Positions 3,029-58,188 of a stretch of 64,000 nt of DNA are shown piece by piece. Source of the DNA: Actinomycetota bacterium. GTDB lineage: Bacteria; Actinomycetota; UBA4738; CALAEC01. The stretch's first letter is position 1, and the number at the start of each line of letters is the position of its first letter. The notes beneath the pieces are model-generated. The model was not told the origin of the DNA and did no database searches. It was given only the letters and a program-made list of their open reading frames with translations. The stretch lies in NCBI GenBank assembly GCA_036001425.1, contig DASYUI010000015.1, forward strand, positions 9,520 through 73,519. Reading direction: 5' to 3'. The translations under genes were made by a program, and so were the position numbers.

Positions 3029-3128
3029 TCCTCAGTCCGGTGCCTTCGGCAGCGTCCTTCGGCCGGGGGAATGCAGCAGCCTGATCCGCTCCGCTTCGCT
3101 CCGCGGGGCTGCTTCCCCCCGGACCCCC
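3029..3128 (-). repeat. modular intergenic hairpin repeat, copy 1 (modules A-C-D)
   Basis: In element orientation it reads TGA|GGGGGTCCGGGGGG AAGCAGCCCCGCGGAGCGAAGCGGAGCGGATCAGGCTGCTGCATTCCCCC GGCCGAAGGACGCTGCCGAAGGCACCGGACTGAGGAGAG. It starts directly after the wzt stop at 3129-3131. Confidence 0.85.
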
Positions 3129-4313
3129 TCACAGCTCCTCCACGCGCAGCTTGGCCGGGACCCATACCTGTCCCTCGATCCCCGCGCTGTCGTCCACGTC
3201 GAACGCGTACCGCTGGTCGTGCCAGTCGTACACCTTATCCAGCCCTCGGGAGTGCACACCGACGGTGAGGTGGTACCGCCCGCTCACGAAGGGCATGGTT
3301 GCCAGCTCGAAGGTCACCCGGAGCGTGCCCTCCACTCTTCCCAGCGCGTGCTCCAACCAGTCCGTCCCGACCTTGTACGCGAGCCGATCACGGGCGTCGT
3401 ACAGCGCCGCCGAGACCACTGGATCGTCGACGGGCCGGTTGGCCTTGAGGTCGACCTGGATCGAAAGGGGCTTCGCCGGGCGGACCCTCTTGACCGGCCT
3501 GCCCTCCGAGTCGAGGAGAGCCACCCCCAGGACCTCGATGTCCTGCGTTGCCTCCCCCCGGACGAACGGGGCTCGCTCCTGGAGGAGCACCACCCGGAAC
3601 TCGCGAAGGACGTCCCGGACATCACCGGAGGCCCGGATTCGACCTCCGTCGAGCATCACCGCCCGGTCGCATATCTCCCGGACCCGCTCCACGGCGTGCG
3701 TGACGAGGACGATGGTCCGTCCCTCTTCCTGGAACCGGCGCACCCGAGCGATGCACTTGCGCTGGAACGCCTCGTCCCCAACGGCCAGCACCTCGTCCAC
3801 GAGCAGGATCTCCGGGTCCACGTGCACGGCCACGGCGAACCCGAGGCGGACGAACATCCCCGAGGAGTAGTGCTTCACCTGGTTGTCGATGAATGGCTCG
3901 AGCTCGGCGAATCCCACGATGTCGTCGAAGCGACGGTCGGTTTCCCTCTTGGAGAGGCCCAGGATCGACGCGTTGAGGTACACGTTCTCTCGGCCGGTGA
4001 GCTCGGGATGGAAGCCCGCGCCGAGCTCGAGGAGTGCGGCGATCCGGCCCCGGGTGGTCACCCGCCCGGCGGTTGGCCGGAGGATGCCGCCGATGATCTT
4101 GAGGAGCGTGGTCTTCCCCGATCCGTTGGCGCCGATCAATCCAACGGTCTCCCCCTCCCCCACGTCGAAGGCAACGTCGCGCAGGGCCCAGAACTCCTCG
4201 GCGCGCGTCCGGCGCAACCGAAGCACCCGCTCCTTCAGGCTCGACGCGCGCTCGTGGTAGAGCCGGAATCGCTTGGATACGGCGTCGATGGATATGGCCG
4301 GCGCGGCCGCCAC
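3129..4313 (-). CDS. wzt: polysaccharide ABC exporter ATP-binding protein with C-terminal carbohydrate-binding (Wzt_C-like) domain
   Basis: 394 aa. Walker A GANGSGKTT, ABC signature YSSGM, Walker B LLVDEVL. An extra ~150 aa beta-rich C-terminal domain matches Wzt/TagH-type exporters. Confidence 0.9.
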   Translation of the reverse strand: MAAAPAISIDAVSKRFRLYHERASSLKERVLRLRRTRAEEFWALRDVAFDVGEGETVGLIGANGSGKTTLLKIIGGILRPTAGRVTTRGRIAALLELGAGFHPELTGRENVYLNASILGLSKRETDRRFDDIVGFAELEPFIDNQVKHYSSGMFVRLGFAVAVHVDPEILLVDEVLAVGDEAFQRKCIARVRRFQEEGRTIVLVTHAVERVREICDRAVMLDGGRIRASGDVRDVLREFRVVLLQERAPFVRGEATQDIEVLGVALLDSEGRPVKRVRPAKPLSIQVDLKANRPVDDPVVSAALYDARDRLAYKVGTDWLEHALGRVEGTLRVTFELATMPFVSGRYHLTVGVHSRGLDKVYDWHDQRYAFDVDDSAGIEGQVWVPAKLRVEEL

Positions 4314-5201
4314 CTAGAGCTCCTCCGCGAAGTCGCCCGACATCCGGTAGAAGGCCCGCCACGTGACGTAGAGCAACAGGATGGAGACAGCGCCGAGCGC
4401 CCCGAGTCGCCCGGCGTACCAGGCGATCCCGGGGTCGGGCAGCTCGGACAAGGCTTCCGCAGAGGAACCGCCGTAGAGCGCGCGCTGGAACGCCAGGACC
4501 ACGTTGGCCAGGGGGTTCAGCAGGTACAGCTGGAGGGCCCGGGCCCCCAGGTTCTCCGCCACGACCTTTGGGCCCTGATACACGATGGGCGTCACCCAGA
4601 ACCAAGCCAGGAGCGCCAGGTCCACGAGATGGTGGGTATCGCGGTACCGGACGTTGAACGCCGACGTCGACAGGCCCACGGCGGTGAGGAACAGGAGCAG
4701 GACGACCAGGGCAAGCGGAACCAACACCAGCGCCGGCCCCAGGAACGGGTACGTGAACACGAGCAGCGCGGCGACCAGGACGAGCGACTGGTAGCCGAAG
4801 TTCACGACCGCGGCACCGATCGCCGAAAGCGGAAGGATCTCCCGAGGGAAGGCCACCTTCGTCACCAACGGACCGTTCGCCACCACCGATCCGGTGGCCC
4901 CCTGGAGCCCCGTGGCGAAGAGGGTCCAGGGCACGATGCCGGCGAGCAGATACACCACGAAGTTCGAGATCCCGCTCCTGAGGAAGAACGTGAACACCAC
5001 ATAGAAGACGGCCAGGTACAGGACGGGGTTCAGCATCGACCAGGCCACGCCGAGGACCGACGACTTGTACTTGACCTTGGTCTCCTTGCGGATCAGGTTG
5101 ACCAGCACTTCCCGGTGATGGAAGAGCTCCCGGAGGCGCCGCCCGACCCGTAGGCGGGGCGGCTCGCTCGTCCGGACCAGGAGCTCCGTTTCGGTGTTCA
5201 T
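4314..5201 (-). CDS. wzm: ABC-2 type polysaccharide exporter permease
   Basis: 295 aa. The KYKSSVLGVAWSMLNP motif is typical of Wzm/TagG ABC-2 permeases. Six hydrophobic segments. Abuts the wzt start. Confidence 0.9.
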   Translation of the reverse strand: MNTETELLVRTSEPPRLRVGRRLRELFHHREVLVNLIRKETKVKYKSSVLGVAWSMLNPVLYLAVFYVVFTFFLRSGISNFVVYLLAGIVPWTLFATGLQGATGSVVANGPLVTKVAFPREILPLSAIGAAVVNFGYQSLVLVAALLVFTYPFLGPALVLVPLALVVLLLFLTAVGLSTSAFNVRYRDTHHLVDLALLAWFWVTPIVYQGPKVVAENLGARALQLYLLNPLANVVLAFQRALYGGSSAEALSELPDPGIAWYAGRLGALGAVSILLLYVTWRAFYRMSGDFAEEL

Positions 5202-6031: not shown

Positions 6032-6048
6032 CCGTGCTCCTCGACTTT

Positions 6049-6235
6049 CCCCCTGGACCCCCTCATCCCTTCTCCTCAGTCCGCTGCCTTTGGCAGCGTC
6101 CTTCGACCAGGGGGAATGCAGCAGCCTTATTCCGCTCGGCTTCGCCTCGCGGGGCTGCTGGCACCCCACGGATCTCGCTCGCTACGCTCGCTGCGATCCG
6201 CGGGGACCCCGCGACTTCCCCCCTGGACCCCCTCA
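6049..6235 (-). repeat. modular intergenic hairpin repeat, copy 2 (A-B-C-D plus a second partial A)
   Basis: Full-length copy between the rmlB stop (6233-6235) and the rmlD start. Flanked by a 24-nt direct repeat CGACTT(T/C)CCCCCTGGACCCCCTCA at 6042-6065 and 6212-6235. Confidence 0.85.
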
Positions 6236-7231: not shown

Positions 7232-7692
7232 TTGAAGGCGACGTCCCAGCCGTAGGGGATGTCGGGGGTGTTCCACGCCGCCCGGTACTCGTCCGGGGCC
7301 TCGCGGTTGTAGGGCTCGGTGGGGATGTTCACCACGATCGACTCGTCCTCGGAGATGCACTTCCACCCGTGATAGACGCCCGCGGGAACCCGGATCAGCC
7401 TCGCGTTGTGATCTCCGATGAAGTACTCGGTCAACGTGCCCTTCGTCGGGGAGTCGTCTCGCGCGTCGTACAGCACCAGCTTCACCATGCCCTTCACGCA
7501 GCAGAAGTTGTCGTCCTGGACCTTGTGAAGGTGCCAGGCCTTGACCACGCCCGGATAGGTCGTGCTGATGTAGACCTGTCCGAACTTCTCGAATCCCTCC
7601 TCGTCGGCGCGGAGGATCTCCATCAATCGTCCCCGCTCGTCGGGGATGACCGCGAGGTCCTTCACCCAGACGCCGTCGATCTCGTCTGCCAC
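7228..7692 (-). CDS. rmlC: dTDP-4-dehydrorhamnose 3,5-epimerase family (short cupin form)
   Basis: 154 aa cupin (DERGRLMEI..., KAWHLH..., GVYHGW). Lies between rmlA and rmlB. Strong SD GAGGAAGGA 6 nt before the GTG at 7692. Confidence 0.75.
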   Translation of the reverse strand: MADEIDGVWVKDLAVIPDERGRLMEILRADEEGFEKFGQVYISTTYPGVVKAWHLHKVQDDNFCCVKGMVKLVLYDARDDSPTKGTLTEYFIGDHNARLIRVPAGVYHGWKCISEDESIVVNIPTEPYNREAPDEYRAAWNTPDIPYGWDVAFK

Positions 7693-20477: not shown

Positions 20478-20921
20478 GTGCTCGAGGACATCGACCACGT
20501 GGGCATCGCCGTCCTGGACCTCGCGGCTACGGTTGAGCGCTACCGGAAGGCCTTCGGCATCGAGCCGGTTCACTGGGAGACCGTGGCAGACCAGGGAGTG
20601 GAGGAAGTCCTGTTCCAGGCGGGGAGGTCCTTCATCCAGCTGCTGGGGGCCCTGGGGCCCGACACTCCCGTCGGCCGGTTCCTGGACAAGCGAGGCGAGA
20701 GCCTCCACCACGTCGGCTACCGGGTCCGGGACGTGGCCGCAGCGCTGGCTCGGCTCAAGGAGCTCGGGGTACCGCTGGTGGACGAGACCCCCCGCCCGGG
20801 GTCTCGAGGGACCACGGTCGCGTTCGTCCATCCCAAGGGGATGGGCGGGGTGCTCGTGGAGCTGGTCCAGCAGGGGGTCCAGGGGGGCAGCAGCCCCGCG
20901 AGGCGAAGCCGAGCGGAATAA
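20478..20921 (+). CDS. mce: methylmalonyl-CoA epimerase (VOC/glyoxalase fold), C-terminal 15 aa encoded by repeat copy 3
   Basis: 147 aa. IDHVGIAVLDL...ESLHHVGYRV...GGVLVELVQ is the typical epimerase pattern. The ORF has no stop before module A and ends at a TAA inside module C. Confidence 0.85.
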   Translation: MLEDIDHVGIAVLDLAATVERYRKAFGIEPVHWETVADQGVEEVLFQAGRSFIQLLGALGPDTPVGRFLDKRGESLHHVGYRVRDVAAALARLKELGVPLVDETPRPGSRGTTVAFVHPKGMGGVLVELVQQGVQGGSSPARRSRAE

Positions 20922-20985
20922 GGCTGCTGCGTTCCCCCCTGGCCGAAGGATGCTGCCGAAGGCAGCTGACTGAGGAAGGAGAACG
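20873..20985 (+). repeat. modular intergenic hairpin repeat, copy 3 (A-C-D)
   Basis: GGGGGTCCAGGGGGG CAGCAGCCCCGCGAGGCGAAGCCGAGCGGAATAAGGCTGCTGCGTTCCCCCCTGG CCGAAGGATGCTGCCGAAGGCAGCTGACTGAGGAAGGAGAA. Confidence 0.85.
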
Positions 20986-20991
20986 AAGGGT

Positions 20992-22269
20992 CTACGGACC
21001 GGGAGCCAGTCTGACTTCCCTGACGCCCCACAGGCTCCAGTCCGGGTAGTTGCCGGCCGCCACGAAATGGACGTAGTTCCGCTGGCCGTCCCGGACCCAT
21101 TCATCCGGAAGCTCCACCGTCCGGCGCCGGCTCCACGAGAGGTTCGCGGTCTCGCCCAGCTCCCTCACCAAGTGCCAGTTGATCCACAGCGACACTTCGC
21201 CGGCCTGGACGTCGAAGACCTCGAATCTCACCCGCCATGCGCCGGATCTCCCGCCGAATTTGTAGAACACCTCCTTGGGGTGGGTCCGGTCCCCTGTGGG
21301 GAGGCGGCCCAAGGCCGTCGCCGTGCCGACCGGAACGGGGAGGGCCGGAGACTGTCGCGGGTTCACGGGAACGGAAGCCAGCGGCGTCCAGTCCTCCGCG
21401 CTGCTGGTCGCATAGTCGTACAGGCTCGCCCCGAGGACCCCGTGCTCTCGGACCGCGCGGACGAACGCCTCCACTTCGGGTCCGTCGGCGGACGAGGCGA
21501 TCCCCCCGGCAACGTGGATCGGAACCGAGGGCCTGCCCGTCTCTTCCCGGATGATCTCGATGTTGCGGCGCGTGTACTGATGAGCGCCCGTGGCGCTGTC
21601 CGTCCGGTTGGTGAAGTAGCCCATCGGGACGAAGACGTCGTAGATCTCCCCGAGCTCGAAGTAGGGGAACCCCGGCCAGGAGTTGGGGAACAGCTCCAGG
21701 TCTCGCGGCGCGGGGATGATGGCTCCCAGGGGATAGGAGGAGCCCGCTAGGTCCCGGATGCGGCGGGAAAGCCGGAGCACGCGGTCATTCCGCTCCGTGA
21801 CGTCCTTCACCTCCCGCGACTCGATGTCCAGGCCGAAGGAGTCGAACGCCTCCCCGTTCGCCGTCCTGAAATTGATGGCGGCCCTGGAGCGCCGGTAGTC
21901 ACGGCGGAGGTTGGCGAAGCCCGGGAGGTACCACCCCACCACCCGCATCCCCGCGACGTGTGCGGCCTGGATGAATCGCTCCATCATGTCCGGCCGGAAG
22001 AGGGCGTAGTCCCGACGATAGTTCGACGTCTCCAGGAAGAGCGTGCGGATCCCGAGCGCCTGCATGGCCTGGACGGTTCCCTCCGGGTCATCCCATTGCG
22101 CCCCGTCGAACACGTCCACCCAGGAGCCGAGGCCGCGGTACGCGGCGACCCTGGGCCGGGGAGCCGACACGGCGCCGGGGAGGGCGAGCGGGGACGTGAG
22201 GAGGGCGAACACGACGACGGTAGCCGTGCGCAAAGCTCGCCGCTTTCCCTTGGAGTCCACCGATGCCAA
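20992..22269 (-). CDS. secreted hypothetical protein, TIM-barrel glycoside-hydrolase-like
   Basis: 425 aa with a signal peptide (TTG start, SD AGGAGAGGA). RGLGSWVDVFD...RTLFLETSN...GWYLPGF... resembles the putative glycosyl hydrolase (GHL/DUF4015-type) families. Weak, memory-based assignment. Confidence 0.4.
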   Translation of the reverse strand: MASVDSKGKRRALRTATVVVFALLTSPLALPGAVSAPRPRVAAYRGLGSWVDVFDGAQWDDPEGTVQAMQALGIRTLFLETSNYRRDYALFRPDMMERFIQAAHVAGMRVVGWYLPGFANLRRDYRRSRAAINFRTANGEAFDSFGLDIESREVKDVTERNDRVLRLSRRIRDLAGSSYPLGAIIPAPRDLELFPNSWPGFPYFELGEIYDVFVPMGYFTNRTDSATGAHQYTRRNIEIIREETGRPSVPIHVAGGIASSADGPEVEAFVRAVREHGVLGASLYDYATSSAEDWTPLASVPVNPRQSPALPVPVGTATALGRLPTGDRTHPKEVFYKFGGRSGAWRVRFEVFDVQAGEVSLWINWHLVRELGETANLSWSRRRTVELPDEWVRDGQRNYVHFVAAGNYPDWSLWGVREVRLAPGP

Positions 22270-24262: not shown

Positions 24263-24375
24263 GGGGGTCCAGGGGGCGAGCAGCCCCGCGAAGCGCAGCG
24301 CAGCGGACCAGGCTGCTCGAGTCCCCCTGGCCGAAGCGCCTCGCCGAAGGCGAGGGGCTGAGGAAGATGAAGGAG
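24263..24375 (+). repeat. modular intergenic hairpin repeat, copy 4 (A-C-D)
   Basis: Starts 1 nt after the TAA at 24259-24261: GGGGGTCCAGGGGG CGAGCAGCCCCGCGAAGCGCAGCGCAGCGGACCAGGCTGCTCGAGTCCCCCTGG CCGAAGCGCCTCGCCGAAGGCGAGGGGCTGAGGAAGATGAAGGAG. Confidence 0.85.
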
Positions 24376-24390
24376 ACCCTCTCGCGCGAT

Positions 24391-31741: not shown

Positions 31742-31952
31742 GGGGACCACCCTAGCCGGGCCCCGCGGGAGGCGCCAAAGACGGCGATCGTTCCTCTGCC
31801 GGATGTCCCCCTCAAACCCGCCCCCCGATCGGCCGATAGACCTGAGGGGGGTCCGGGGAGAGTAGCTCGCCCGGAGTAGTCGAAGTGTTGAGCGGGAGAG
31901 CGAGCGGTCCCCCCGGAGAGACGGGAAACCAGCGGTTGGAGGCGCCCCCGGC

Positions 31953-43095: not shown

Positions 43096-44259
43096 CTACC
43101 TCCCCATGACGACCACTGTTCCCACCTGCATGAGGTCGCCCCACGCCTGGGCCACGCCCCTCCGGGGATCGCCGGGCACCTGCCGGTCCCCGGCCTCTCC
43201 GCGCAGCTGCCAGAAGAGCTCGGCGATCTTCATGAGCCCCGCCGCGGCGATCGGGTTGCCCACGCCGAGCAGACCTCCCGATGGGCACGACGGCAGATCG
43301 CCGTCGCGGTCGAGCACGCCGTCGCGCATGGCTTCGGGCGCCTTCCCCTTGTCGAAGAGGAGCAACCCCTCCAGGTGATGGAGCTCCTTGTAGTCGAACG
43401 GGTCGTATGGCTCCGCGACGTGGATCTCCTTACGCGGCTCCCGGATCCCGGCCATGTCGTACGCCATCCGGGCCGCGTACTCCACGTAGTCGGGGTAGTA
43501 GAGGTCGCGGTTCGTCCAGTAGGCGGTGTCGAGGTGCCAGCCCACGCCGTCGATCCACACCGGCCGGTCGGTCAGCCGCTTCGCAACGTGCTCGGCGGCG
43601 AGGACCACCGCGACCGCTCCGTCGCTCACGGGAGAGACGTCGAGGCGCTGCACCGGCCAGGCCAGCACCTCGGAGTTGAGGACGTCGTCGACGGTGATGT
43701 CCGCCTGCCCGAGGAGGGCCGCCGGATGGCCGGCGGCGTTTCGCTTGTTCTTGACCGAGACCGCTGCGACGTCGCGCTTGTCGAGACCGTGCACCGACAT
43801 GTACCGGTTCATCTCCAGGGCGAAGATCCACAGGAGGTTCGGGCCCAGCGGCCGTTCCAGGATGCTGTCGAAGATGGTGATGAACGCCCCCTGCGCGTGT
43901 GGCATCGTGGACGACATCTTCTCCTCCGCCACGACGAGGGCCACGTCGAACATGCCCGAGGCAACGAGATACCAGCCCTGGATGGTGACGAACACGCCGG
44001 TCCCGCCACCGACGTACGTGCGGAAGAACGGCTTGCCGTAGGCCCCACTCCCGTCCGAGAGGTACTCGCCCTTCATGTGGACCCCGTCGAACGCGTCCGG
44101 GGCTGTGCCCAGAGCGACCGCGTCGACGTCGGCCAGGGTCAGGGAGGCGGAGTCAAGGGCCGCCCGCGCGGCCTCCCAGGACAGCTCCTTGCCGGTCTCC
44201 TGGGCCCGGCGGACGAACCTCGTCATCCCCGCCCCGACCACGGCCACCCGCTGCCCCAT
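43096..44259 (-). CDS. thiolase-fold protein lacking canonical Cys/His/Cys residues (SCP-x/Ltp-like), copy 2
   Basis: 387 aa. MGQRVAVVGAGMTRF... thiolase-like N-terminus. The nucleophile region reads YVGGGTGVF (no Cys). GGLLGVGNPIAAAG stands where thiolases have GHP. The only Cys is in LPSCPSGG. Confidence 0.85.
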   Translation of the reverse strand: MGQRVAVVGAGMTRFVRRAQETGKELSWEAARAALDSASLTLADVDAVALGTAPDAFDGVHMKGEYLSDGSGAYGKPFFRTYVGGGTGVFVTIQGWYLVASGMFDVALVVAEEKMSSTMPHAQGAFITIFDSILERPLGPNLLWIFALEMNRYMSVHGLDKRDVAAVSVKNKRNAAGHPAALLGQADITVDDVLNSEVLAWPVQRLDVSPVSDGAVAVVLAAEHVAKRLTDRPVWIDGVGWHLDTAYWTNRDLYYPDYVEYAARMAYDMAGIREPRKEIHVAEPYDPFDYKELHHLEGLLLFDKGKAPEAMRDGVLDRDGDLPSCPSGGLLGVGNPIAAAGLMKIAELFWQLRGEAGDRQVPGDPRRGVAQAWGDLMQVGTVVVMGR

Positions 44260-44639
44260 CAGGAATGGTCTTCCGCGTGTCGGGGAAAGTGCTCGATCAG
44301 CTCGACGCGGTTGCCGTCTGGGTCACGGAAGGTGGCGAACCGCGCGAAGCCCTCGACCTCTCCGGAATGCTCGTCGAAGGCGACGCCCTTCTCCTGCATC
44401 GTCCGCCGCGCGAGATCCAGGTCCTCCACACGGAACATGACGGCTGCCCCGCCCGATCCCATCGGGTGACCCTCCACCGCGCCGTGCAGGGCGAATCGAA
44501 CGGGCTCGGTGGCGAACTCCGCCCACTGAGGCCCGTCCTGGCGCACAAGCCTCAACCCGACGACGTCGCGATAGAAGGCCACCGCACGATCCATGTCCGC
44601 GGTCCAGTAGTAGACGTAGTCGATGGGCCCCACGTCCAT
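44259..44639 (-). CDS. VOC (glyoxalase/bleomycin resistance/dioxygenase) family protein
   Basis: Trimmed to ATG at 44639 (126 aa; MDVGPIDYVYYWTADMDRAVAFYRDVVGL...FRDPDGNRVELIE). TGATG overlaps at both ends. Confidence 0.8.
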   Translation of the reverse strand: MDVGPIDYVYYWTADMDRAVAFYRDVVGLRLVRQDGPQWAEFATEPVRFALHGAVEGHPMGSGGAAVMFRVEDLDLARRTMQEKGVAFDEHSGEVEGFARFATFRDPDGNRVELIEHFPRHAEDHS

Positions 44640-45805
44640 CACGTCATCACCTCGTCGGAGGCGAACACCGCGACGGCGGCGCTCGTGGTGGGAACGCCCC
44701 GCCACGACTGGGCCACCGCCACGCCGGCGTCCTCCACCTGCCGCTCGCCGGCCTCTTCCCGCAGCTGGAGGACGCATTCCATCGCCTTGGCCAGCCCGTT
44801 GGCCTCGAACAGGTTCCCCTGGCCGAGCGATCCGCCGGACACGTTCACCGGCAGCTCGCCGTCGCGGCCGAAGTACCCTTCCTCGAGCATGGGCCCGGCC
44901 GCTCCGGGACGGGAGAGCCGAAGGGCCTCGATCGACATCAGCTCGCGGTACGAGTACAGGTCGTCCACCTCGGCCAGATCCACGTCACGAGGTGGGGAAG
45001 AGACGCCGGCCAGGTGGTAGGCGCGGTCCGCGGCCGCTCGTACGTAGTCCGCGGCTCCCCACTGCCGGCTCTCCAGGCTCGGGCTTCCCGACGACCACCC
45101 GACCCCAACGATCCACACCGGCAGGTCCGTGAGGTCCCGGGCCCGGTCCTCGTCCGCGAGCACCAACACGATGGCACCGTCGGCCCGTTCCGAGACGTCG
45201 AGACGCTTCAACGGCCACCACAGCGGATCGGATTCAGCCACGTCCTCCGCGGCGACCTCGGTCGGATACGCGGCTCGCGGGTTGTCCAGGGCGTTCCTGC
45301 GATTCTTCTCGACCACGAGTGCGCACTGTTCCTCGGTGCTCCCCGAGGTTTCGAGATAGGACGTCATCTCCAGCCCCGCCACCGCGAGCGGCGACACATC
45401 GAGCGGACGGTTGAGCACCGGGTCCAGCGCGAACTGGTGGATGTGACCCAGCGTGACGATGTCCGACGCTTTGCTGTGGCCTTCGACCACCACGACCCCC
45501 GCCGCTCCGGAACGGATCAACATGACCGCCGTGGCGATCCCATACAGACCATCCCCGGAAACGGTGTGGACGGGCCGCAGTGCCGCTCCCAGTTGGTCGG
45601 GCACGTATTCGTCGAAGATCGAGGTGCCCTCCCAGAAGTCCTCCGAGACCGCGACGAAGGAGTCCACGTCTCGCCGGGGATCGATCCTGGCGTCGTCGTA
45701 GGCCCGAAGCGCAGCCTCGAAGGTCTGCTCCTTGTACGAGAGGCCTGCGGTGATGGGGGCGAATCCAGCGTGCCCCACCCCGACGATGGCGACACGGTCA
45801 CCCAT
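44639..45805 (-). CDS. thiolase-fold protein lacking canonical Cys/His/Cys residues, copy 1
   Basis: 388 aa. MGDRVAIVGVGHAGF.... The nucleophile region reads HTVSGDGLYG (no Cys). GGSLGQGNLFEANG replaces the GHP block. No C-terminal CxG Cys. Confidence 0.85.
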   Translation of the reverse strand: MGDRVAIVGVGHAGFAPITAGLSYKEQTFEAALRAYDDARIDPRRDVDSFVAVSEDFWEGTSIFDEYVPDQLGAALRPVHTVSGDGLYGIATAVMLIRSGAAGVVVVEGHSKASDIVTLGHIHQFALDPVLNRPLDVSPLAVAGLEMTSYLETSGSTEEQCALVVEKNRRNALDNPRAAYPTEVAAEDVAESDPLWWPLKRLDVSERADGAIVLVLADEDRARDLTDLPVWIVGVGWSSGSPSLESRQWGAADYVRAAADRAYHLAGVSSPPRDVDLAEVDDLYSYRELMSIEALRLSRPGAAGPMLEEGYFGRDGELPVNVSGGSLGQGNLFEANGLAKAMECVLQLREEAGERQVEDAGVAVAQSWRGVPTTSAAVAVFASDEVMT

Positions 45806-45810
45806 GTTCC

Positions 45811-45919
45811 CTCTTCCTTATCTGCTTCCTCAGCCCCTCGCCTTCGGCGAGGCGCTTCGGCCAGGGGGAATGCAGCAGCCTGATCCGCTCCGCGGGGCTG
45901 CTGCCCCCCTGGACCCCCT
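45811..45919 (-). repeat. modular intergenic hairpin repeat, copy 5 (A-short C-D)
   Basis: In element orientation: GGGGGTCCAGGGGGG CAGCAGCCCCGCGGAGCGGATCAGGCTGCTGCATTCCCCCTGG CCGAAGCGCCTCGCCGAAGGCGAGGGGCTGAGGAAGCAGATAAGGAAGAGGG, then the ATG at 45805. Module A starts 14 nt after the GNAT TAG (45934-45936; spacer 45920-45933). Confidence 0.85.
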
Positions 45920-45933: not shown

Positions 45934-46563
45934 CTAGCAGAGCTCGATCGGGCCCTCGCCGCGAGCGAGCCTCTGGACCAGCTCCCCGAGCGGCGTTCCC
46001 TCGATCTGCTTGGCACGCGCCGTCACGTCCACTTCCACCCGCAGGAGCCTCGGGGAATCGTGGGTCAGCCTGGCCCCGACAGCCTGCGCGACCTCACGCA
46101 TCTGGCGGTTGTCCTCGAGCACGTAGCCGCGCAAGATCTGGATCCCGTTCGGCAGCGCCGCCGCTCCCAGTGCCTCGAGGAGAAGGGTCCCGATTCCCCG
46201 CCCCTGATACTCGTCCACCACCGTGACGGCGGCCTCCGCCACCTCCGGCTCCTCCTCCAGTCGCACGTACCGGGACACCCCCGCACCTGGGTTCCCCGGC
46301 TCGTCGGCCAGCAACGCGACCCAGGCGAAGTGGTTCATGTAGTCCAGCTCGGTGAGGTGTCGGATCATCTCGTCGTCGAGCTCCGCTATCGGAGTCATGA
46401 ACCGGCGATATCGGGACGCGGCCGAAAGCCGCCGGAACCCCTCCACGATGGCCTGCCGGTCTTCCGGAACGAGCGGCCGGAGCCGGACGCGGGTGCCGTC
46501 GCGCACCGGCACGATCGCCGTCCGTCGCGAAACGAACTCGGGATCGACGGCCACCCGGCTCAT
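45934..46563 (-). CDS. GNAT family N-acetyltransferase
   Basis: 209 aa. ...VTVVDEYQGRGIGTLLLEAL... is the Q/RxxGxG/A acetyl-CoA binding motif. Confidence 0.8.
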   Translation of the reverse strand: MSRVAVDPEFVSRRTAIVPVRDGTRVRLRPLVPEDRQAIVEGFRRLSAASRYRRFMTPIAELDDEMIRHLTELDYMNHFAWVALLADEPGNPGAGVSRYVRLEEEPEVAEAAVTVVDEYQGRGIGTLLLEALGAAALPNGIQILRGYVLEDNRQMREVAQAVGARLTHDSPRLLRVEVDVTARAKQIEGTPLGELVQRLARGEGPIELC

Positions 46564-47400: not shown

Positions 47401-49149
47401 GTGGCGAAGGTCCGGGTGCTGGTGGCGAACAGAGGCGAGATCGCCGTCCGGGTGATCCGGACGTGCCGGGAGCTGGGCATCCCCACCGTCGCCGTGTACT
47501 CGGACGCCGACCGCGACGCTCTCCACGTCGAGTTGGCCGACCGGGCGTACCGGATCGGGCCTCCCCCGCCCACACAGTCGTACCTGAACGTGAAAGCGAT
47601 CCTCGAGGTTGCTGCCAAGGGTAAAGCCACCGCCGTCCATCCAGGGTACGGGTTCCTCGCCGAGAACCCCGACTTCGCCCGGGCCTGTGCCGGTGCCGGG
47701 CTCACATTCATCGGCCCCACGCCGGAGGCCATGGAGATCATGGGGGACAAGGCCGCCGCTCGCCGAACGGCCGAGCGCATCGGCGTCCCGGTCATCCCCG
47801 GGATCTCCGATCCGGTCGGGCCCGAGGAGGCGCTGAAGATCGCCGGTCGCATCGGCTACCCCCTGGCGGTCAAGGCGGCGTTCGGAGGCGGAGGCCGCGG
47901 GATGCAGCTGGTGGAGGGTCCGGATCTGCTGGAAGAGGCCGTCGAGCGGTCGGCGCGCGAGGCGCAGTCGTACTTCGGGCGACCCGAGGTGTACCTCGAG
48001 CGGTACATCACGCGCGCCCACCACGTCGAGGCCCAGATCATCGCGGATAGGCATGGGAACTTCTTGTCCCTCGGCGAGCGGGACTGCACCCTCCAACGGC
48101 GCTATCAGAAGCTCGTCGAGGAGAGCCCCTCCCCCGTGGTCGACGCCGACCTGCGGACGCGCATCGGCGAGGCCGCACTGGCCGTGGCCAAGGAGGCGGG
48201 GTACGTGAACGCGGGGACCGTCGAGTTCCTCGTGGACGACGACCGCTCCTTCTACTTCCTGGAGATGAACACGCGTCTCCAGGTGGAGCACCCGGTCACC
48301 GAGATGGTGGCGGGAGTGGACATGGTCCGGCTCCAGATCGACGTGGCGATGGGCGAGAAGGTGGACCTGGCACCCAGCCTGCGAGGCCACGCCATCGAGT
48401 GCCGGATCAACGCGGAGGACCCGGCACGCGACTTCATCCCGGCACCGGGGCTGATCACTCGGTTCCGTCCCCCCACCGGCCCGTTCGTTCGCGTCGATGC
48501 GGGGATCACCGAGGGACGGGTCATACCGGGTGACTACGACTCGCTGTTCTGCAAGCTCGTCGTGTGGGGAGAGAACCGCGAACAGGCCCGGCGCCGGATG
48601 CTCCGGGCCCTCGACGAGTTCGAAGTCGAAGGCGTCCCCACGACGATCCCCTTCTACCGATGGGTGCTCGACACCCTGACGTTCGTCGAGGCCAGTCACA
48701 CCACCAAGTGGGTAGAGCGCGCGCTGCATGACGGGCAGTTCCCTGCGCCGGCGTTCGGCGAAGCGAAGGCCGCGGCCGAGCCGCTACCGGCGGGAGCCGG
48801 GCCGGCGTCGGCCGCCTCCCGAGTGGTGGTCGAGGTGAACGGGCGGCGAATCCCGGTTCGTGTGTGGGGGGAGGATCTCCCATCCGCCCCAGCCCCTCCC
48901 ACCGGGGACACCCACGGGATCCACGCGCACGGAGCGGATTCTGTGGCGGCCCCCATGCAGGGCACGATCCTCAAGGTCATGGTGGAGGAGGGGCAGGAGA
49001 TCCGGTCCGGTGACGTGATCTGCGTCCTCGAGGCGATGAAGATGGAGAACCACGTGACGGCCACCCACGATGGACGGGTGCAGCAGGTGGCGGTCAAGGC
49101 CGGCGACGTCGTGGAGACGGGCCAGATCCTCGTGACCCTCGGCGATTAG
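47401..49149 (+). CDS. accA: acyl-CoA carboxylase alpha subunit (biotin carboxylase + BCCP)
   Basis: Trimmed to GTG at 47401 (SD GGAGGGA). VLVANRGEIAVRVIRT..., ATP-grasp blocks, and C-terminal biotinylation motif EAMKMEN. Divergent from birA. Confidence 0.9.
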   Translation: MAKVRVLVANRGEIAVRVIRTCRELGIPTVAVYSDADRDALHVELADRAYRIGPPPPTQSYLNVKAILEVAAKGKATAVHPGYGFLAENPDFARACAGAGLTFIGPTPEAMEIMGDKAAARRTAERIGVPVIPGISDPVGPEEALKIAGRIGYPLAVKAAFGGGGRGMQLVEGPDLLEEAVERSAREAQSYFGRPEVYLERYITRAHHVEAQIIADRHGNFLSLGERDCTLQRRYQKLVEESPSPVVDADLRTRIGEAALAVAKEAGYVNAGTVEFLVDDDRSFYFLEMNTRLQVEHPVTEMVAGVDMVRLQIDVAMGEKVDLAPSLRGHAIECRINAEDPARDFIPAPGLITRFRPPTGPFVRVDAGITEGRVIPGDYDSLFCKLVVWGENREQARRRMLRALDEFEVEGVPTTIPFYRWVLDTLTFVEASHTTKWVERALHDGQFPAPAFGEAKAAAEPLPAGAGPASAASRVVVEVNGRRIPVRVWGEDLPSAPAPPTGDTHGIHAHGADSVAAPMQGTILKVMVEEGQEIRSGDVICVLEAMKMENHVTATHDGRVQQVAVKAGDVVETGQILVTLGD

Positions 49150-49318
49150 GGGGTCCAAGGGGGAAGCAGCGGGGCCCCCGCGGATCGCAGCGAGCGGAGC
49201 GAGCGAGATCCGTGGGGTGCCAAGCAGCCCCGCGAGGCGGAGCCGAGCGGATCAGGCTGTTTCATTTCCCCTGGCCGAAGCGCTTGCCGGAGGCGAGGGG
49301 CTGAGGATGGGAAAAGAG
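49150..49318 (+). repeat. modular intergenic hairpin repeat, copy 6 (A-B-C-D)
   Basis: Begins directly after the accA TAG (49147-49149): GGGGGTCCAAGGGGG..CCCCCGCGGATCGCAGCGAGCGGAGCGAGCGAGATCCGTGGGG..AGCAGCCCCGCGAGGCGGAGCCGAGCGGATCAGGCTG..CCCCTGGCCGAAGCGCTTGCCGGAGGCGAGGGGCTGAGGATGGG. Confidence 0.85.
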
Positions 49319-49343
49319 AGCGAGCTGGCCGAGGCGCGCTGGG

Positions 49344-50477: not shown

Positions 50478-52061
<1,584 letters not shown>

Positions 52062-53747: not shown

Positions 53748-53759
53748 GGATGCGATCCC

Positions 53760-54161
53760 TTGAAGCGGACCTCCGAGTTCGGAAGCCTGTACAAGGGTCG
53801 GGAGGGCCAGTGGTCCTGGATCGCCCACCGGGTGACCGGGGTCGGCATCCTGGCCTTTCTCTTCGTTCACATCGTCGACACCGCGCTGGTGGCATGGGGC
53901 CCGAGCGCCTACAACAAGGTCGTCGCGGTCTATCACCATCCGATCATCCAGATGATGGAGCTCGGCCTGGTGGGGGCGGTCATCTACCACGCGCTCAACG
54001 GGATCCGCATCATGATCATCGACTTCTGGCCGAGAGCCTCCCTCTACCAGGCTCGCCTGTTCTGGGGGACGGCAACCCTCTTTGCCGCGGCGATGGTCCC
54101 CGTCACCTGGCTGATGGGGACCCGGATCGTGCAGGCCATCCTGAACGAGGGTCTGTTCTGA
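53760..54161 (+). CDS. sdhC: succinate dehydrogenase cytochrome b subunit
   Basis: 133 aa with three TM helices. [21 protein letters not shown] heme-His context. First gene of the cluster. Confidence 0.8.
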
Positions 54162-54580
54162 TGGCGGTGGAAGCCCGTCGGGCCGCCCCCGAGAGGCACC
54201 CTCCGGGGCCGCGCCCCCGCCCCGCCGGGCTCGAGCTGTGGACATGGTTGTTCATGCGCCTGTCGGGGATCGTTCTCCTCTTCCTGGCGGTCGGGCACGT
54301 CCTGATCATGCACGTGATGGAGGACGGCGTGCAGCGAGTCAACTTCGATTTCGTCGCGGAGCGGTGGTCCGGCGGGTTCTGGCGGACCTGGGACTGGCTT
54401 ATGCTCTCGCTCGCCCTCCTGCACGGCCTGGCGGGCCTGCGGGTCATCATCATGGACTACGTCCGGCGGCCCGGCTGGCGACTCGCGTGGAACTCGTTCT
54501 TCGGGGTCATGGGGGTGACCTTGTTCGCCCTGGGCACGATCATCGTCTTCACCTTCGATCCATCCCAGTTCCGTTTCTGA
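54161..54580 (+). CDS. sdhD: succinate dehydrogenase hydrophobic membrane anchor subunit
   Basis: 139 aa. ATG at 54161 in a TGATG overlap with the sdhC stop. [23 protein letters not shown]... three TM helices. Confidence 0.75.
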
Positions 54581-56313
54581 TGACGCAGGTCCACACCTAC
54601 GACGCGGTGATCGTCGGGGCGGGCGGTGCCGGGCTCCGCGCCGCCATCGAGGCCTCTGATCGGGTCCGCACCGCGGTGATCTCCAAGCTCTACCCGACGC
54701 GATCGCACACCGGGACGGCGCAGGGAGGGATGTGCGCGGCGCTGGGCAACGTCGAGGAAGACTCTCCGGAATGGCACACCTTCGACACCGTGAAGGGAGG
54801 GGACTACCTCGTGGATCAGCCCGCCGCGGACGTGATGTGCCGGGAGGCCATCGACGCGGTCATCGAGCTCGAGCACTGGGGCTTCCCCTTCAACCGCACG
54901 CCTGAGGGGAAGATCGACCAGCGCCGGTTCGGCGGGCACACCCGCAACCACGGTGAGGCGCCGGTCCGACGGGCCTGTTACGCGGCCGACCGGACCGGAC
55001 ACATGATCCTTCAGACCCTGTACCAGCAGTGCATCAAGCGCGACGTCCGGTTCTTCAACGAGTTCTACGTGCTCGATCTCGTCCTCGAGGATGGCCGGGC
55101 CGCCGGAGTAGTCGCCTACGAGCTGGCTACCGGGGAGCTGCACGTGTTCCGGGCCAAGGCCGTCCTCTTCGCGACGGGAGGCTACGGAAAGATCTTCAAG
55201 ATCACCTCCAACGCCCACACCCTCACCGGCGACGGCCTCGGCGTGTGCTATCGGCGGGGCATCCCCCTCGAGGACATGGAGTTCTTCCAGTTCCACCCGA
55301 CCGGCATCTACAAGATGGGGATCCTCATCTCCGAGGCCGTGCGGGGCGAGGGTGGCATCCTCCTCAACGGCGAGGAGGAGCGGTTCATGGAGCGTTACGC
55401 CCCGACGATCAAGGACCTGGCCCCCCGTGACATGATCGCCCGGGCCATATACCACGAGATCCACGAGGGCCGCGGGGTTGGAGGCAAGGACTACGTGCAC
55501 CTCGACGTCCGCCACCTGGACCCAGAGATCATCGAGAAGAAGCTGCCCGACGTCACCGAGTTCGCCCGGATCTATCTGGGGGTGGAGCCCCTCCGGGAGC
55601 CGATCCCCATCCAGCCCACGGCGCACTACGGGATGGGGGGGATCCCCACCGATGTGGACGGCCGGGTGGTGCTCGGAGAGGCCGAGAAGCCAGTGCCCGG
55701 GCTCTACGCCGGCGGAGAGTGCGCGTGCGTCTCGGTGCATGGGGCCAACCGACTCGGGACGAACTCACTCCTCGATATCGTGGTGTTCGGCAAGCGAGGC
55801 GGGCGGCATATGGCGGAGTACGCTCAGCAGGCTGGCCTGGCGCAGTTCCCCACGGACCCGGAGCGGCCCACGGGCGAGCTGCTCCACCGGCTCTTGGGCT
55901 CCACAGGAACCGAACGCGTCCCGGAGATCCGGGAGGAGTTGCAGGAGAACATGTCTGACCTGGCGGGGGTGGTGCGCACCGAGGAGAGCGGGCGGAAGAT
56001 GCAGGATATCCTCGACTCCTTGCGAGAGCGGTACGGGCGGGCCGTGGTCCAGGACAAGGGCAAGGTGTACAACACCGACCTCATGGAAGCCGTGGAGCTG
56101 GAGTTCCTCCTCGACTGCGCGGACACTCTGGTGGCCGCGGCTCTGGCCCGGGAAGAGAGCCGGGGGGGGCACTACCGGGAGGACCATCCCCTACGGGACG
56201 ACGATCACTGGCTCCGACACTCCCTGGCCTATCGCGAGCCGGACGGGTCCGTGCGCCTGGAGTACAAGCCGGTGAAGCTCGGCGCGTACGTGCCCATGGA
56301 GCGGAAGTACTGA
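54580..56313 (+). CDS. sdhA: succinate dehydrogenase flavoprotein subunit
   Basis: 577 aa. ATG at 54580 in a TGATG overlap. [16 protein letters not shown]..., SHTGTAQGG (FAD-His), HPTGIY..., [24 protein letters not shown]. Confidence 0.9.
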
Positions 56314-58022
56314 TGGAGACGATCGCTCACGACATCGTCATCGTGGGGGGTGGGGGTGCGGGTCTCCGGGCGGCCATCGCTGCCGCAGAGGTCTCGGATG
56401 CGCTGAGCATCGCCCTGGTGTCCAAGGTCTACCCGATGCGCAGCCACACCGTGTCAGCCGAGGGGGGTGCGGGAGCGGTCGTCCGGGAGGACGATAGCCT
56501 CGACCTCCACGCCTTCGACACCATCCGCGGAAGCGACTGGCTCGCTGACCAGGACGCAGTGGAGGCCTTCGTCTCCGAGTGCTTTCCGGAGATGATCCGG
56601 CTGGAGCACTGGGGATGTCCGTGGAGCCGGGAACCGGACGGGCGGCTGGCCGTCCGACCCTTCGGCGGGATGAGCGTGCCCAGAACGCTGTTCGCTGCCG
56701 ACAAAACCGGGTTCCACATGCTCCACGCCCTCTTCCAGACCTCCCTGAAGTACGAGCGGATCACCCGCTACGACGAGTTCTTCGTAACGAAGCTCCTGAT
56801 CGAGGACGGCCGGTGCGCGGGTGTGGCCGCCATGGATCTTCGGGACACCGAGGTCAGGTGCATCACCGGGAAGGCCGTCATCCTATGCACCGGTGGCGCC
56901 GGGCGCACCTACTCCTTCACCACCAACGGGGCCATCAAGACGGGCGACGGGATGGCGCTGGCCTACCGGGCGGGCGTCCCCCTCAAGGACATGGAGTTCG
57001 TTCAGTACCATCCGACCGGCCTCCCCGGGACAGGGATCCTCATCACCGAGGCCGCCCGGGGGGAGGGCGGGTACCTGCTGAACAAGGAGGAGAGGCGGTT
57101 CCTCGAGGACTACATCCCGTCGAAGATGGAGCTGGGGCCCCGGGACATCCTGTCCCGGGCGATCATGCAGGAGATCGAGAAGGGCCAGGCGTTCGAAGGG
57201 CCGCATGGGGAGTACGTGCACCTCGACGTCCGCCACCTCGGCGAGGAGACGATCGACAGGAACCTGCCGTTCGTCCGGGAGCTGGCCCGGAACTATGTGG
57301 GGATCGACCCGGTCCACGAGCCCATCCCGGTGCGGCCGGTGGTCCACTACTGGATGGGCGGCATCGACACCGACATCCTGGGCCGGACCCGGCTCCCTGG
57401 CCTGTACGCGGCGGGGGAGGCCGCCTGCGTCAGCATCAACGGCGCCAACCGGCTGGGCTCGAACTCCCTCAGCGAGTGCCTGGTGTTTGGGGCGAGGGCG
57501 GGGAGGCAGGCCGCGGAGGACGCTCTCGACGCAACCGGACCCACGCGGGGTCCCCTCGCGAAGCTCGCCCAGGCCGAACAGGACCGGCTGGTCGGGGACT
57601 ATCTGGACAAGACGGGAGGCCGGGAACGGATCGGCGCGATCCGCCGGGACCTCCAGGCCGCCATGGAGAAGGGAGCCGGCATCTTCCGGACCGAGGAGTC
57701 GCTGAAGGACGCAGTCGAGGAGATCCGCGGACTCCGGGGGCGGTACCGGGACCTGAGCCTCGACGATCACGACCGAGCCTTCAACACCGAGCTGGTGGCG
57801 GCCCTCGAGCTCGGTAACATGCTCGACGTGGCCGAGGCGGTGGTCGCGTCAGGCCTCGAGCGGCGGGAGTCGCGGGGATCCCACACCCGGTCGGATTACC
57901 CCTCCCGCGATGACGATCGGTTCCTGAAGCACAGCCTGGCCTTCGCCACCTCGGAGGGCCCCCGGATCGAGTACGGGGACGTGACGATCACCCGGTGGCC
58001 GCCGGCGGAGCGAGAGTACTAA
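56313..58022 (+). CDS. frdA: fumarate reductase flavoprotein subunit
   Basis: 569 aa. [71 protein letters not shown] and [18 protein letters not shown] closely track E. coli FrdA as I recall it. ATG is in a TGATG overlap with the sdhA stop. Confidence 0.85.
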
Positions 58023-58188
58023 GGGGTCCAGGGGGAAAGTGCCGGGGTCCCCGCGGATCGCAGCGAGCGAAGCGAGCGAGATCCGCGGGGTGTCCAGCAG
58101 CCCCGCGAGGCGAAGCCGAGCGGGTCAAGTCTGCTGCATTCCCCCTGGCCGAAGCGCCTCGCCGAAGGCGAGGGGCTGAGGAAGGAGA
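58023..58188 (+). repeat. modular intergenic hairpin repeat, copy 7 (A-B-C-D), inside the frd cassette
   Basis: Starts directly after the frdA TAA (58020-58022) and ends ~15 nt before the frdBC ATG. Used as the reference copy for module definitions. Confidence 0.85.

Follow-up and report, generated by a model that had tools for sequence, protein, structure and literature searches.

The window, the whole 64-kb stretch of DNA analyzed here, carries seven copies of a structured repeat, three on the minus strand and four on the plus strand. An earlier note had located these copies from the sequence alone, and we confirmed all seven at its coordinates by sequence, by a core pattern (7 matches in the window versus 1.6 expected by chance), and with a covariance model, R1. 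A scan of the window with R1 at E ≤ 1 returned these seven copies and no further family member. The full repeat measures 115 to 175 nt, and the genes flanking the copies are supported as real by Pfam. A search for tRNA and tmRNA genes found none. The copies, together with two related features, are as follows.

3027..3128, minus strand: copy 1, short form (covariance model, 105.9 bits)
6042..6062, minus strand: truncated second head (GGGGGTCCAGGGGGAAAGTCG), directly 3' of copy 2
6063..6232, minus strand: copy 2, long form with module B (sequence, Pfam, fold, covariance model)
20873..20991, plus strand: copy 3, short form, between convergent genes (sequence, Pfam, fold)
24263..24377, plus strand: copy 4, short form (covariance model, 116.5 bits)
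31846..31925, plus strand: related "family 2" element, leader of a GAF-GGDEF gene (ATG 31953)
45806..45919, minus strand: copy 5, short form with a shortened P3 loop (sequence, Pfam, fold, covariance model)
49150..49320, plus strand: copy 6, long form (sequence, Pfam, covariance model)
58023..58195, plus strand: copy 7, long form (sequence, Pfam, fold, covariance model)

Copy 1 occupies the entire spacer between the TGA (3129-3131) of a Wzt-type ABC ATPase gene, which it follows with a 0-nt gap at 3128, and the GTG (3026) of a GT4 glycosyltransferase gene. Copy 2 likewise directly follows the TGA (6233-6235) of an RmlB-like dehydratase gene, and the gene on its 3' side is RmlD-like, with its ATG at 6031. 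The extent of 6049-6235 first assigned to copy 2 needs correction at its 3' part, which belongs to the truncated head at 6042..6062, the remnant of a tandem copy. At copy 3, a glyoxalase/epimerase-family open reading frame (ORF; 20478-20921) overlaps the element by 49 nt, its TAA stop codon falling in the P3 loop, and the convergent minus-strand gene (20992-22269) ends at 20992. Copy 4 lies 1 nt past the TAA (24259-24261) of a PCC-domain gene and precedes a carboxyltransferase gene that starts at 24406. Copy 5 begins 14 nt past the TAG (45934-45936) of a GNAT gene, and its tail reaches the ATG (45805) of a thiolase-like gene. Copies 6 and 7 follow with 0-nt gaps the TAG (49147-49149) of a biotin carboxylase/BCCP gene and the TAA (58020-58022) of an FrdA-like gene; the 3' neighbor of copy 6 is a convergent, minus-strand DCC1-like gene, while the tail of copy 7, GAGGAAGGAGAATAGGAG, lies upstream of an FrdB/C fusion gene with its ATG at 58204. 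Five of the seven copies (1, 2, 4, 6, and 7) therefore start 0 to 1 nt past a stop codon, as originally reported.

The division into modules A to D, with module B only in copies 2, 6, and 7, also held, except that module A, although real, is not a standalone unit. It is the 5' strand of a stem, P1, whose other strand is CCCCCTGG, located after module C. P1 encloses hairpin P3 (module C) and, in the three long copies, hairpin P2 (module B) as well. The P1 domain is followed on its 3' side by hairpin P4 (module D) and then by a purine-rich tail. Copy 7 serves as the exemplar, and all of its parts lie on the plus strand.

58028..58035, plus strand: P1 5' strand CCAGGGGG, inside module A
58049..58090, plus strand: optional hairpin P2 (module B), stem CCCCGCGGATC/GATCCGCGGGG, GCGAAGC apex
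58095..58136, plus strand: hairpin P3 (module C), near-invariant core
58141..58148, plus strand: P1 3' strand CCCCCTGG, C-rich and anti-Shine-Dalgarno-like
58149..58181, plus strand: hairpin P4 (module D), GNA triloop
58178..58195, plus strand: purine-rich tail, the Shine-Dalgarno (SD) region of the downstream gene

The predicted fold has 34 pairs, with 96.5% of cells paired across 88 copies, and 18 of these pairs show changes on both sides. None of 500 shuffles did as well, and slid controls collapsed. Predicted hairpins of the copies range from -52 to -99 kcal/mol, with z-scores of -2.3 to -4.6. P4 varies freely in sequence, with compensatory changes that preserve pairing; these substitutions are incompatible with a conserved peptide, and thus the element holds no conserved ORF. 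The hairpin apices are all C-GNA-G triloops, many of them GCGAAGC, a type of motif that forms an unusually stable DNA mini-hairpin. The P1 inverted repeat closes only the first ~70 nt, conserved P4 and tail run ~45 nt further, and the element has no sharply defined ends.

Beyond the window, we found the family at about 71 non-redundant sites in several uncultured Actinomycetota metagenome-assembled genomes and in soil metagenomes, placing it in an uncultured soil and groundwater Actinomycetota lineage, to which it is specific. Copies are denser in the window (7 per 64 kb) than in the other loci (about one extra copy per 60 kb). Viral contigs gave no matches to the repeat. A check of Rfam, one of those proposed with the original description, matched no known family: the whole window had no hits at gathering thresholds, and two copies searched at E ≤ 10 had best sub-threshold values of E = 0.13 to 0.14, to unrelated families. 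The sole match in a literature search for the element sequence was an unrelated human paper. With neither an Rfam nor a literature match, this structured repeat is previously undescribed. Plasmid BLAST returned only 37-nt matches between the (GCGA)n-like apex of module B and a Natronococcus palindromic repeat, which we judged a low-complexity coincidence. A hammerhead ribozyme was rejected as well; CUGAGGA resembles CUGANGA, but the motifs flank the hairpin in the wrong order and Rfam gives no match.

All seven copies had been described as pointing the same way as the upstream gene, with a chance of 1 in 128. For copies 3 and 6, however, the flanking genes converge, which makes co-orientation automatic either way, and so the window evidence is 5/5, or about 1 in 32. 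The bias itself holds across the family: between co-directional genes, 28 copies are sense and 2 antisense by strict ORF calls, in gene contexts assigned flank by flank with a home-made coding-potential caller and at sites that are not fully independent, some being orthologous. Placement is extragenic, mainly between unidirectional and convergent ORFs, with about one fifth of the sites that have a callable downstream gene at convergent gene ends. Operon sites include rpsS-rplV, rpsQ-rplN, and rplN-rplX, and the family also occurs just upstream of tuf. Since the window copies switch strand along the 64 kb, each following local transcription, replication direction cannot account for the orientation bias, and we ruled it out as the cause.

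The position of the 3' end is more regular than that of the 5' end. The distance from the end of P4 to the downstream start codon has a median of 17.5 nt, with 43 of 52 copies within 6 to 35 nt, and several copies (loci L020, L013, L009, and L011) follow a divergent gene and are located within a 5' leader. At filled rpsS-rplV sites, the 5' end falls 4 to 35 nt past the stop codon and the 3' tail abuts the ATG. The downstream start codon is thus a firmer anchor than the upstream stop, which argues against the stop-codon targeting proposed in the earlier note. At the empty rplN-rplX junction, the SD lies within the 3' end of rplN; at the filled junction, this rplN-internal SD is ~200 nt off, and the element tail offers GAGAAGAGG before the ATG. 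The tail is therefore the predicted SD of the next gene.

Other features also point to a sense transcript. Stems read on the sense strand contain 38 G-U pairs versus 17 A-C mismatches, and rare stop-creating core variants occur in copies entered by an upstream ORF, in the matching frame. Together with the sense bias and the SD tail, these features support the part of the proposed RNA-level action in which the element belongs to the mRNA in one orientation. The attenuator part was not supported, given the copies in essential operons and the lack of any T-run after the hairpins at the seven copies; copies 5 to 7 also gave no terminator call. An intrinsic terminator is a GC-rich hairpin with a U-tract after it, whereas the tail here is purine-rich and has no U-tract.

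The suggested comparison of orthologous intergenic regions revealed presence/absence differences at four ribosomal protein junctions (rpsS-rplV, rpsQ-rplN, rplN-rplX, and rpsH-rplF), each occupied in some genomes and empty in others. At one orthologous spacer, the window and locus L020 are reciprocal in presence and absence. Tandem and truncated copies were observed, and extra heads occur in the 3' flank of 14 of 86 copies versus 5 of 86 in a control region. These sequence comparisons indicate that the element moves, or at the least has been gained and lost, as the mobility part of the earlier proposal would have it. No target-site duplication was visible in five empty-versus-filled comparisons, made between diverged genomes in which duplications of 1 to 2 bp are possible. 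This result is compatible with a REP/RAYT- or IS200/IS605-like route. We rejected a "TGAGG" duplication, in which stop codon and SD would be doubled at both ends, because the 3' ends of other subfamilies read CATCGGGAAGA or CCGACGA and TGAGG is missing from many 5' flanks. A crude HUH-motif scan (P[NDES]H.H.., six frames) of 735 kb of sampled loci, as opposed to whole genomes, gave one spurious match, and no transposase or other mobilizing gene was found in this sample. The family 2 element shares the GGGGGGTCCGGGG head and the ..GCGGTCCCCCCGGAG closing strand but has a different interior, and the orthologous spacer of L020 lacks it. GTAGC is carried by both related families, 2 and 3.

The P1/P3 core is nearly invariant across genomes, and in 13 of 15 pairs of orthologous sites it is more conserved than the flanking protein-coding DNA. 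This exceeds the conservation of a decaying selfish repeat and points to a partner that acts in trans or to some function for the host.

On balance, we think it fairly probable that the element is a non-autonomous, modular REP/MITE-like mobile repeat, co-transcribed in host operons and tolerated there because it brings its own SD and no terminator. Each copy would be transcribed in one orientation as part of the host mRNA and would fold into a self-contained domain in which P1 encloses P3 (and, in long forms, P2). Hairpin P4 would come next, with the purine-rich tail serving as the SD site for the next gene. Having its own ribosome-binding site and no terminator, the element could occupy very short stop-to-start spacers, even in ribosomal protein operons. 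Reversed copies would delete the downstream ribosome-binding site and expose C/U-rich loops, and selection would purge them, yielding both the orientation bias and the apparent association with stop codons. An enzyme that acts in trans and does not duplicate its target may drive the spread. Between cistrons, the folded RNA may also mark a boundary for mRNA stability or processing, and a role as a 3'-end stabilizer or processing site is plausible.

A possible but rather doubtful alternative is that the repeat is a host cis-regulatory RNA module whose P1/P3 core is recognized by a dedicated RNase or RNA-binding protein (an RNase III-type cut of the ~21-bp P1+P3 helix being one example). Many unrelated cistrons, among them ribosomal protein, EF-Tu, and metabolic genes, would then belong to one posttranscriptional regulon or share standardized boundaries, with mobility only the origin of the module. 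This would suit a near-identical core that beats flanking coding DNA in conservation while P4 drifts with compensation, and an element found consistently just 5' of the SD. In silico, blocking the 5' G-rich strand of P1 lets the C-rich strand pair with the SD and lowers its accessibility from 0.63 to 0.50. This modest alternative pairing fits regulation, but the predicted switch is weak, and we set aside a ribosome-operated SD switch, retaining it merely as a lead. Also against such a module, no candidate partner was identified, copy density varies widely between the window and other loci, and junction occupancy differs between related genomes, so that no gene strictly requires the element.

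A domesticated, lineage-wide "intercistronic cassette" is a speculative and improbable extension. Here, a mobile RNA module would establish a standard boundary wherever it inserts between cistrons: the upstream message would gain a structured 3' cap, a dedicated RNase or RNA-binding protein would find its recognition core, and the SD would travel with the module. Possibly, a ribosome terminating at the adjacent stop would open P1 as a switch, with the C-rich strand masking the SD. If true, the cassette would be a new genome-wide form of posttranscriptional control, spread by transposition.

We regard a purely DNA-level function as unlikely. The hairpins would be substrates of a Y1/HUH enzyme (RAYT or IS200/IS605 type) or a BIME-like site for a nucleoid protein or topoisomerase, with the RNA properties incidental. 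The triloop apices, filled sites without target duplication, head-to-tail tandems with extra heads in 3' flanks, and a REP-like GTAG tag beside the stem in related families and five copies (PMC3733652) are consistent with such substrates. However, in a single 64-kb window, copies on either strand are oriented with the transcription around them, which is not expected from a pure DNA or replication process, and the SD tail, G-U excess, and frame-matched stop variants point to mRNA selection. The 735 kb of sampled loci, a weak negative, showed no RAYT. Finally, a transcription attenuator or U-tract-less terminator that sets expression ratios of neighboring genes would suit very stable GC hairpins right after stop codons and the sites at convergent gene ends, but is highly unlikely, as the terminator scan was empty, no T-run follows any hairpin, an SD and start codon follow immediately, and the occupied sites include junctions of essential co-transcribed genes and the region just 5' of tuf.

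The preferred reading, a tolerated mobile repeat, would explain how such an element can colonize the most constrained noncoding DNA of a compact genome, the few bases from stop to start in essential operons. It would also offer a natural, portable intercistronic part, a self-folding insulator plus SD, that is attractive for engineering operons in high-GC Actinomycetota. Because the family is lineage specific and junction occupancy varies, it is a potential strain-typing marker. Core conservation above that of ribosomal protein coding sequence hints at a trans-acting partner worth finding.

Among known systems, integron attC sites follow mobile promoterless cassettes and have conserved R''/R' cores (RYYYAAC/GTTRRRY); they do not fit, as the flanks here are housekeeping operons and the consensus has no GTTRRRY core. 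A DDE-type MITE is defined by terminal inverted repeats at the very ends, which this element does not have, and by a target-site duplication around every copy, of which none was visible in the comparisons above. Correia/NEMIS elements of Neisseria, ERIC/IRU of enterobacteria, and BOX of pneumococcus are alike in being ~100 to 170 bp and co-transcribed, with long mRNA hairpins, and the BOX modules A-B-C, the middle one optional or repeated, resemble our optional module B. RNase III cuts Correia hairpins, and ERIC acts in an orientation-dependent way. Unlike the present element, these have terminal inverted repeats and occur in both orientations, with TA target duplications in Correia and ERIC; they share no sequence similarity with it, and none is known to supply a downstream SD. 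The intercistronic RNase III sites of phage T7 are conserved internal-loop hairpins, in one orientation, immediately before the next ribosome-binding site. They match the present element as same-way hairpins between co-transcribed genes just 5' of the ribosome-binding site, but are fixed in the phage genome, whereas our element is dispersed and polymorphic and its cleavage by RNase III hypothetical.

MIRU, like our element, is an Actinomycetota repeat found within operons, gene oriented, and sometimes in tandem. It inserts at start codons, preserving downstream gene expression (PMC12548453). MIRU uses a small internal ORF whose ends overlap the neighboring stop and start codons, so that its translation is coupled to that of the downstream gene, whereas our element has no conserved start codon and instead presents an SD and stable hairpins.

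REP/BIME sequences are GTAG- or CGTC-tagged palindromes mobilized by RAYT tyrosine transposases, located mainly between unidirectional and convergent ORFs, and their termini can provide a stop codon (PMC3733652). They resemble the present element as high-copy extragenic palindromes in mosaics, mostly 3' of coding regions, without target duplication, and are likewise thought to be transcribed and active as RNA. Genomes with REPs also carry a RAYT (Y1/HUH) gene, which the repeats usually flank. At the tag position, our main family has GCAGCAGCC, with GTAGCAGCC in only 5 of 86 copies (pair 23/69, UG:5). A REP is a single hairpin of 20 to 40 bp, whereas the present element spans 115 to 175 nt with three or four hairpins plus a closing stem. 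BIMEs and REPINs contain REPs in alternating or inverted orientation, while our element nearly always lies one way to transcription and, unlike REP, ends in an SD.

Reading and aligning all seven stretches of the window confirmed that they belong to one repeat family, family 1, as the earlier note had claimed. The head motif, GGGGTCCAGGGGG, has 6 exact occurrences in the window, including a truncated second head at 6049-6061, and is present with one mismatch in copies 1 and 6; the core, GCAGCCCCGCGRRGCG, has 7 matches where chance predicts 1.6. A covariance model scan of the window at E<=1 returned exactly the seven copies and nothing more, and a repeat search of the whole window revealed no other non-coding repeat family. 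The stop-codon positions reported for the copies were correct, and the flanking ORFs are genuine genes, based on Pfam matches.

Window copies of the element, with strand and neighboring genes (Pfam)
Copy 1 (-): Wzt-type ABC ATPase, then GT4 glycosyltransferase
Copy 2 (-): RmlB-like, then RmlD-like
Copy 3 (+): glyoxalase/epimerase family gene; convergent gene opposite
Copy 4 (+): PCC-domain gene, then carboxyltransferase
Copy 5 (-): GNAT, then thiolase-like gene
Copy 6 (+): biotin carboxylase/BCCP; convergent DCC1-like gene opposite
Copy 7 (+): FrdA-like, then FrdB/C fusion

Other features of the window
20478-20921 (+): glyoxalase/methylmalonyl-CoA-epimerase-like ORF upstream of copy 3; its own stop is lost, it extends 49 nt into the element, and its last 16 residues are element-encoded (GVQGGSSPARRSRAE)
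31846-31925 (+): family-2 element, in the leader of a GAF-GGDEF gene
43096-44259 and 44639-45805 (-): adjacent thiolase-like paralogues downstream of copy 5, with an 88-nt stretch at 70% identity
46060-49149 (+): ORF of 1029 codons with the biotin carboxylase and BCCP match confined to residues 452-1027; the gene is 582 aa in a metagenome gene call, and the 5' part of the ORF, overlapping the GNAT gene on the opposite strand, is probably non-coding
54238-56313 and 56313-58022 (+): tandem FrdA/SdhA-like flavoprotein paralogues, with a 178-nt stretch at 72% identity
58204-59358: FrdB-FrdC fusion gene 3' of this pair, with Fer2_3, 4Fe-4S domains and Fumarate_red_C

We derived the architecture of the element from folding and alignment of 28 short-form copies. 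Modules A and C of the earlier description are present, with the refinement that module A (..CCAGGGGG) pairs with CCCCCTGG after module C. The resulting stem, P1, encloses P3, the module C hairpin (GCAGCAGCCCCGC...GCGG...GGCTGCTGC), and P2 (module B) as well in long copies 2, 6, and 7, where a three-way junction results. P4 (module D) lies directly 3' of P1 and is followed by a purine-rich tail (GAGGAAGGAGAA and variants). Apical loops are all C-GNA-G triloops, often GCGAAGC. There is no T-run 3' of the element hairpins, and a terminator scan at copies 5-7 made no call. Some copies (L088, L090, L097, L092, L073) carry an extra mini-hairpin, e.g., AGCCCCGAAGGGGCT, between P4 and the start codon, a further optional module with a GAA triloop.

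The pairing was evaluated on 88 copies aligned to the model. Standard pairs make up 96.5% of pair cells, and 18 of 34 pairs have changes on both sides. None of 500 shuffles matched any pairing measure, and pairing collapsed to 35-48% when the partner was shifted by 1-3 columns. Covariation is found in all 11 pairs of P4 (11/11), and the P1/P3 core is near-invariant, unpaired bases included.

The window is of metagenomic origin: JGI contigs from samples 3300036860 and 3300036861 carry genes identical to its own. Scanning one genome per species for the exact pattern gave 31 loci, 3 of them chance matches; the 28 true copies lie in soil and groundwater MAGs of uncultured Actinomycetota, such as SMAG_U4612, SMAG_U4702, and M3-S bins. 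The same scan of metagenomes contributed a further 68 loci, from soil assemblies. Searching with R1, the covariance model of family 1, gave 35 and 77 matches, or 90 distinct copies at approximately 71 sites. Copy density depends strongly on the genome, at 7 per 64 kb in the window versus about 1 additional copy for every 60 kb in other loci. Viral contigs held no match to the element, and a literature search for its sequence found nothing.

Related repeats share parts of this design. Family 2 has the GGGGGGTCCGGGG head of family 1 and a GCGGTCCCCCCGGAG closing strand around a different, GTAGC-tagged interior; outside the window it occurs in L012 (3598), L016 (7740), and L025 (5317), and L011 has two in tandem (1353/1426). 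Family 3 consists of short (43-50 nt) tandem hairpins, GGGGTCCGGGGCCTCAAGCAGCGAAGCGGTAGGCCCCGG, with the head and GCGAAGC loop in common with family 1 (L021 4499-4553; L058 1313-1375; L095 3027 and 7474-7539; L004 1229), and one pair in L095 adjoins a tRNA gene. A divergent subfamily scores 41-54 bits with R1 and has the interior GTAGCA..CGAGCGAAGCGAG..TGCGGACCCCCTGG (L006 6002-6106; L054 9656-9762; L059 4266-4370; L034 1220-1324; L049 3409-3607, the last comprising two exact copies in tandem at the rplN-rplX junction). A haloarchaeal palindromic repeat, found in 9 places on Natronococcus sp. CG52 plasmid NZ_CP099392.1 (L102), has an apex (GCGGTTCGGAGCGAGCGAAGCGAGCGAGAACCGC) like module B and adjoins a DDE transposase gene; we judged its resemblance a low-complexity coincidence.

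To compare orthologous intergenic regions, we used three S10/spc ribosomal operons, with gene identities assigned by Pfam and junctions read from ORF maps and sequences. The same junctions are filled in some genomes and empty in others.

Ribosomal operon junctions with and without the element
rpsS-rplV: empty in L056 (~10-nt spacer); filled in L049, L054, L022, and L070
rpsQ-rplN: empty in L049; filled in L056, L054, and L091
rplN-rplX: empty in L056 (TAG-CC-ATG); filled in L049 by two tandem copies
rpsH-rplF: empty in L056 and L054; filled in L049/L065

In L014, a further copy directly precedes tuf. The window's divergent spacer 31743-31953 has a family-1 copy in L020 and none in the window, whereas its family-2 element (~31846-31925) is present in the window and absent from L020. 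No target-site duplication was visible in any empty-versus-filled comparison. Tandem or truncated copies occur at 6042-6062 in the window and in L049, L009, L025, L055, and L057, and an extra head follows the tail in 14/86 copies versus 5/86 in a control region. At the empty rplN-rplX junction, the Shine-Dalgarno (SD) sequence, GGAGGTG, falls within the last part of rplN; where the junction is filled, this SD is ~200 nt away and the tail supplies GAGAAGAGG before the ATG, so that sense orientation alone would be tolerable there.

The 3' end of P4 keeps a tight spacing to the start codon downstream, with a median of 17.5 nt and 43/52 copies at 6-35 nt, and thus the tail is the SD region of the downstream gene. 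The association with upstream stop codons put forward in the earlier note is real, with most stops 0 to 25 nt upstream of the head, but is secondary to the start-codon spacing. Several copies (L020, L013, L009, L011) occupy a 5' leader after a divergent gene.

Co-orientation with the upstream gene, originally counted as seven of seven, holds in all five informative window cases; copies 3 and 6 are uninformative because they lie between convergent genes, where co-orientation is automatic. Window copies alternate strand, always following local transcription, and therefore replication-strand preference cannot be the cause. Gene contexts outside the window were assigned with our own coding-potential caller, for which the window served as training set, and only sites with a strong ORF on each flank were kept. 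This yielded 34 callable sites, some not independent of each other: both neighbors were co-directional with the element at 28, only the upstream neighbor at 3 (downstream convergent), and only the downstream neighbor at 1 (upstream divergent), and the element was antisense within a co-directional pair at 2 (L094 clear, L095 weaker). The informative comparison, 28 sense versus 2 antisense, extends the orientation bias to the wider sample. In the single clear antisense copy (L094 1986-2102), both neighbors run opposite to the element and one stop abuts the tail end.

Several features point to selection. In 13/15 pairs of orthologous filled sites, the P1/P3 core is closer than flanking coding DNA (L049 versus L054: core, 95.6%; flanks, 80-85%), and P4 diverges faster than the core (78%) yet keeps pairing. 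On the sense strand, the stems hold 38 G-U pairs versus 17 A-C mismatches, an excess that is only suggestive of sense-strand RNA selection because the copies are related to one another. Rare core variants that create stops fall in copies whose upstream ORF enters the element, and in the same frame: TGA at positions 46-48 (L003, L035, L036), a stop at 47-49 (window copy 3, L048), TAG at 16-18 (L042), and TGA at 30-32 (L100). These frame-matched variants indicate that the element is transcribed and, where the upstream stop was displaced, translated in the sense direction. An upstream ORF apparently reads through the entire element in L041, and possibly also in L024, L059, and L034.

Family 1 is a dispersed family, gained and lost, with a conserved multi-hairpin fold, placed in the direction of transcription between a stop codon and the next start codon, with its tail where the downstream SD must lie. 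It would have spread via a trans-acting enzyme that leaves no duplication; a Y1/HUH single-strand route, suggested by the stable hairpins with GNA triloops and by the GTAG-tagged related families, is attractive but unproven. Only insertions compatible with read-through and with translation of the downstream gene would survive selection, while antisense copies would remove the SD, expose C/U-rich loops, and perhaps attract Rho as well. Within the mRNA, P1/P3 forms a self-contained domain that would probably cap the upstream cistron, and P4 probably leaves the SD unpaired (computed SD accessibility, 0.63). RNase III could plausibly cut the ~21-bp P1+P3 helix. A weakly supported putative switch would have the terminating ribosome open P1, after which CCCCCUGG pairs with the SD (computed accessibility, 0.63 to 0.50). 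The extreme conservation of the core is the main point that such a mobile repeat leaves unexplained, and for this reason we retain a host function for the element as an alternative, though an unlikely one.

Among known systems, the element is not a classical MITE, since terminal inverted repeats and target duplication are both absent, nor is it an attC site, a terminator, or a member of any Rfam family, Rfam having returned no match. It is closest in its working to REP/BIME elements, with which it shares location, lack of duplication, stop-codon supply, and a probable RNA role (PMC3733652). Unlike them, it is much larger and multi-hairpin, does not alternate in orientation, and in its main family has no GTAG tag. 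MIRUs are likewise in-operon and gene-oriented, and insert at start codons with expression preserved (PMC12548453); the element resembles them in its setting near start codons but has no coupled ORF. It thus belongs to neither group, and we rate it as a kind of co-transcribed intergenic repeat distinguished by a built-in SD, near-strict sense orientation, and a conserved core.
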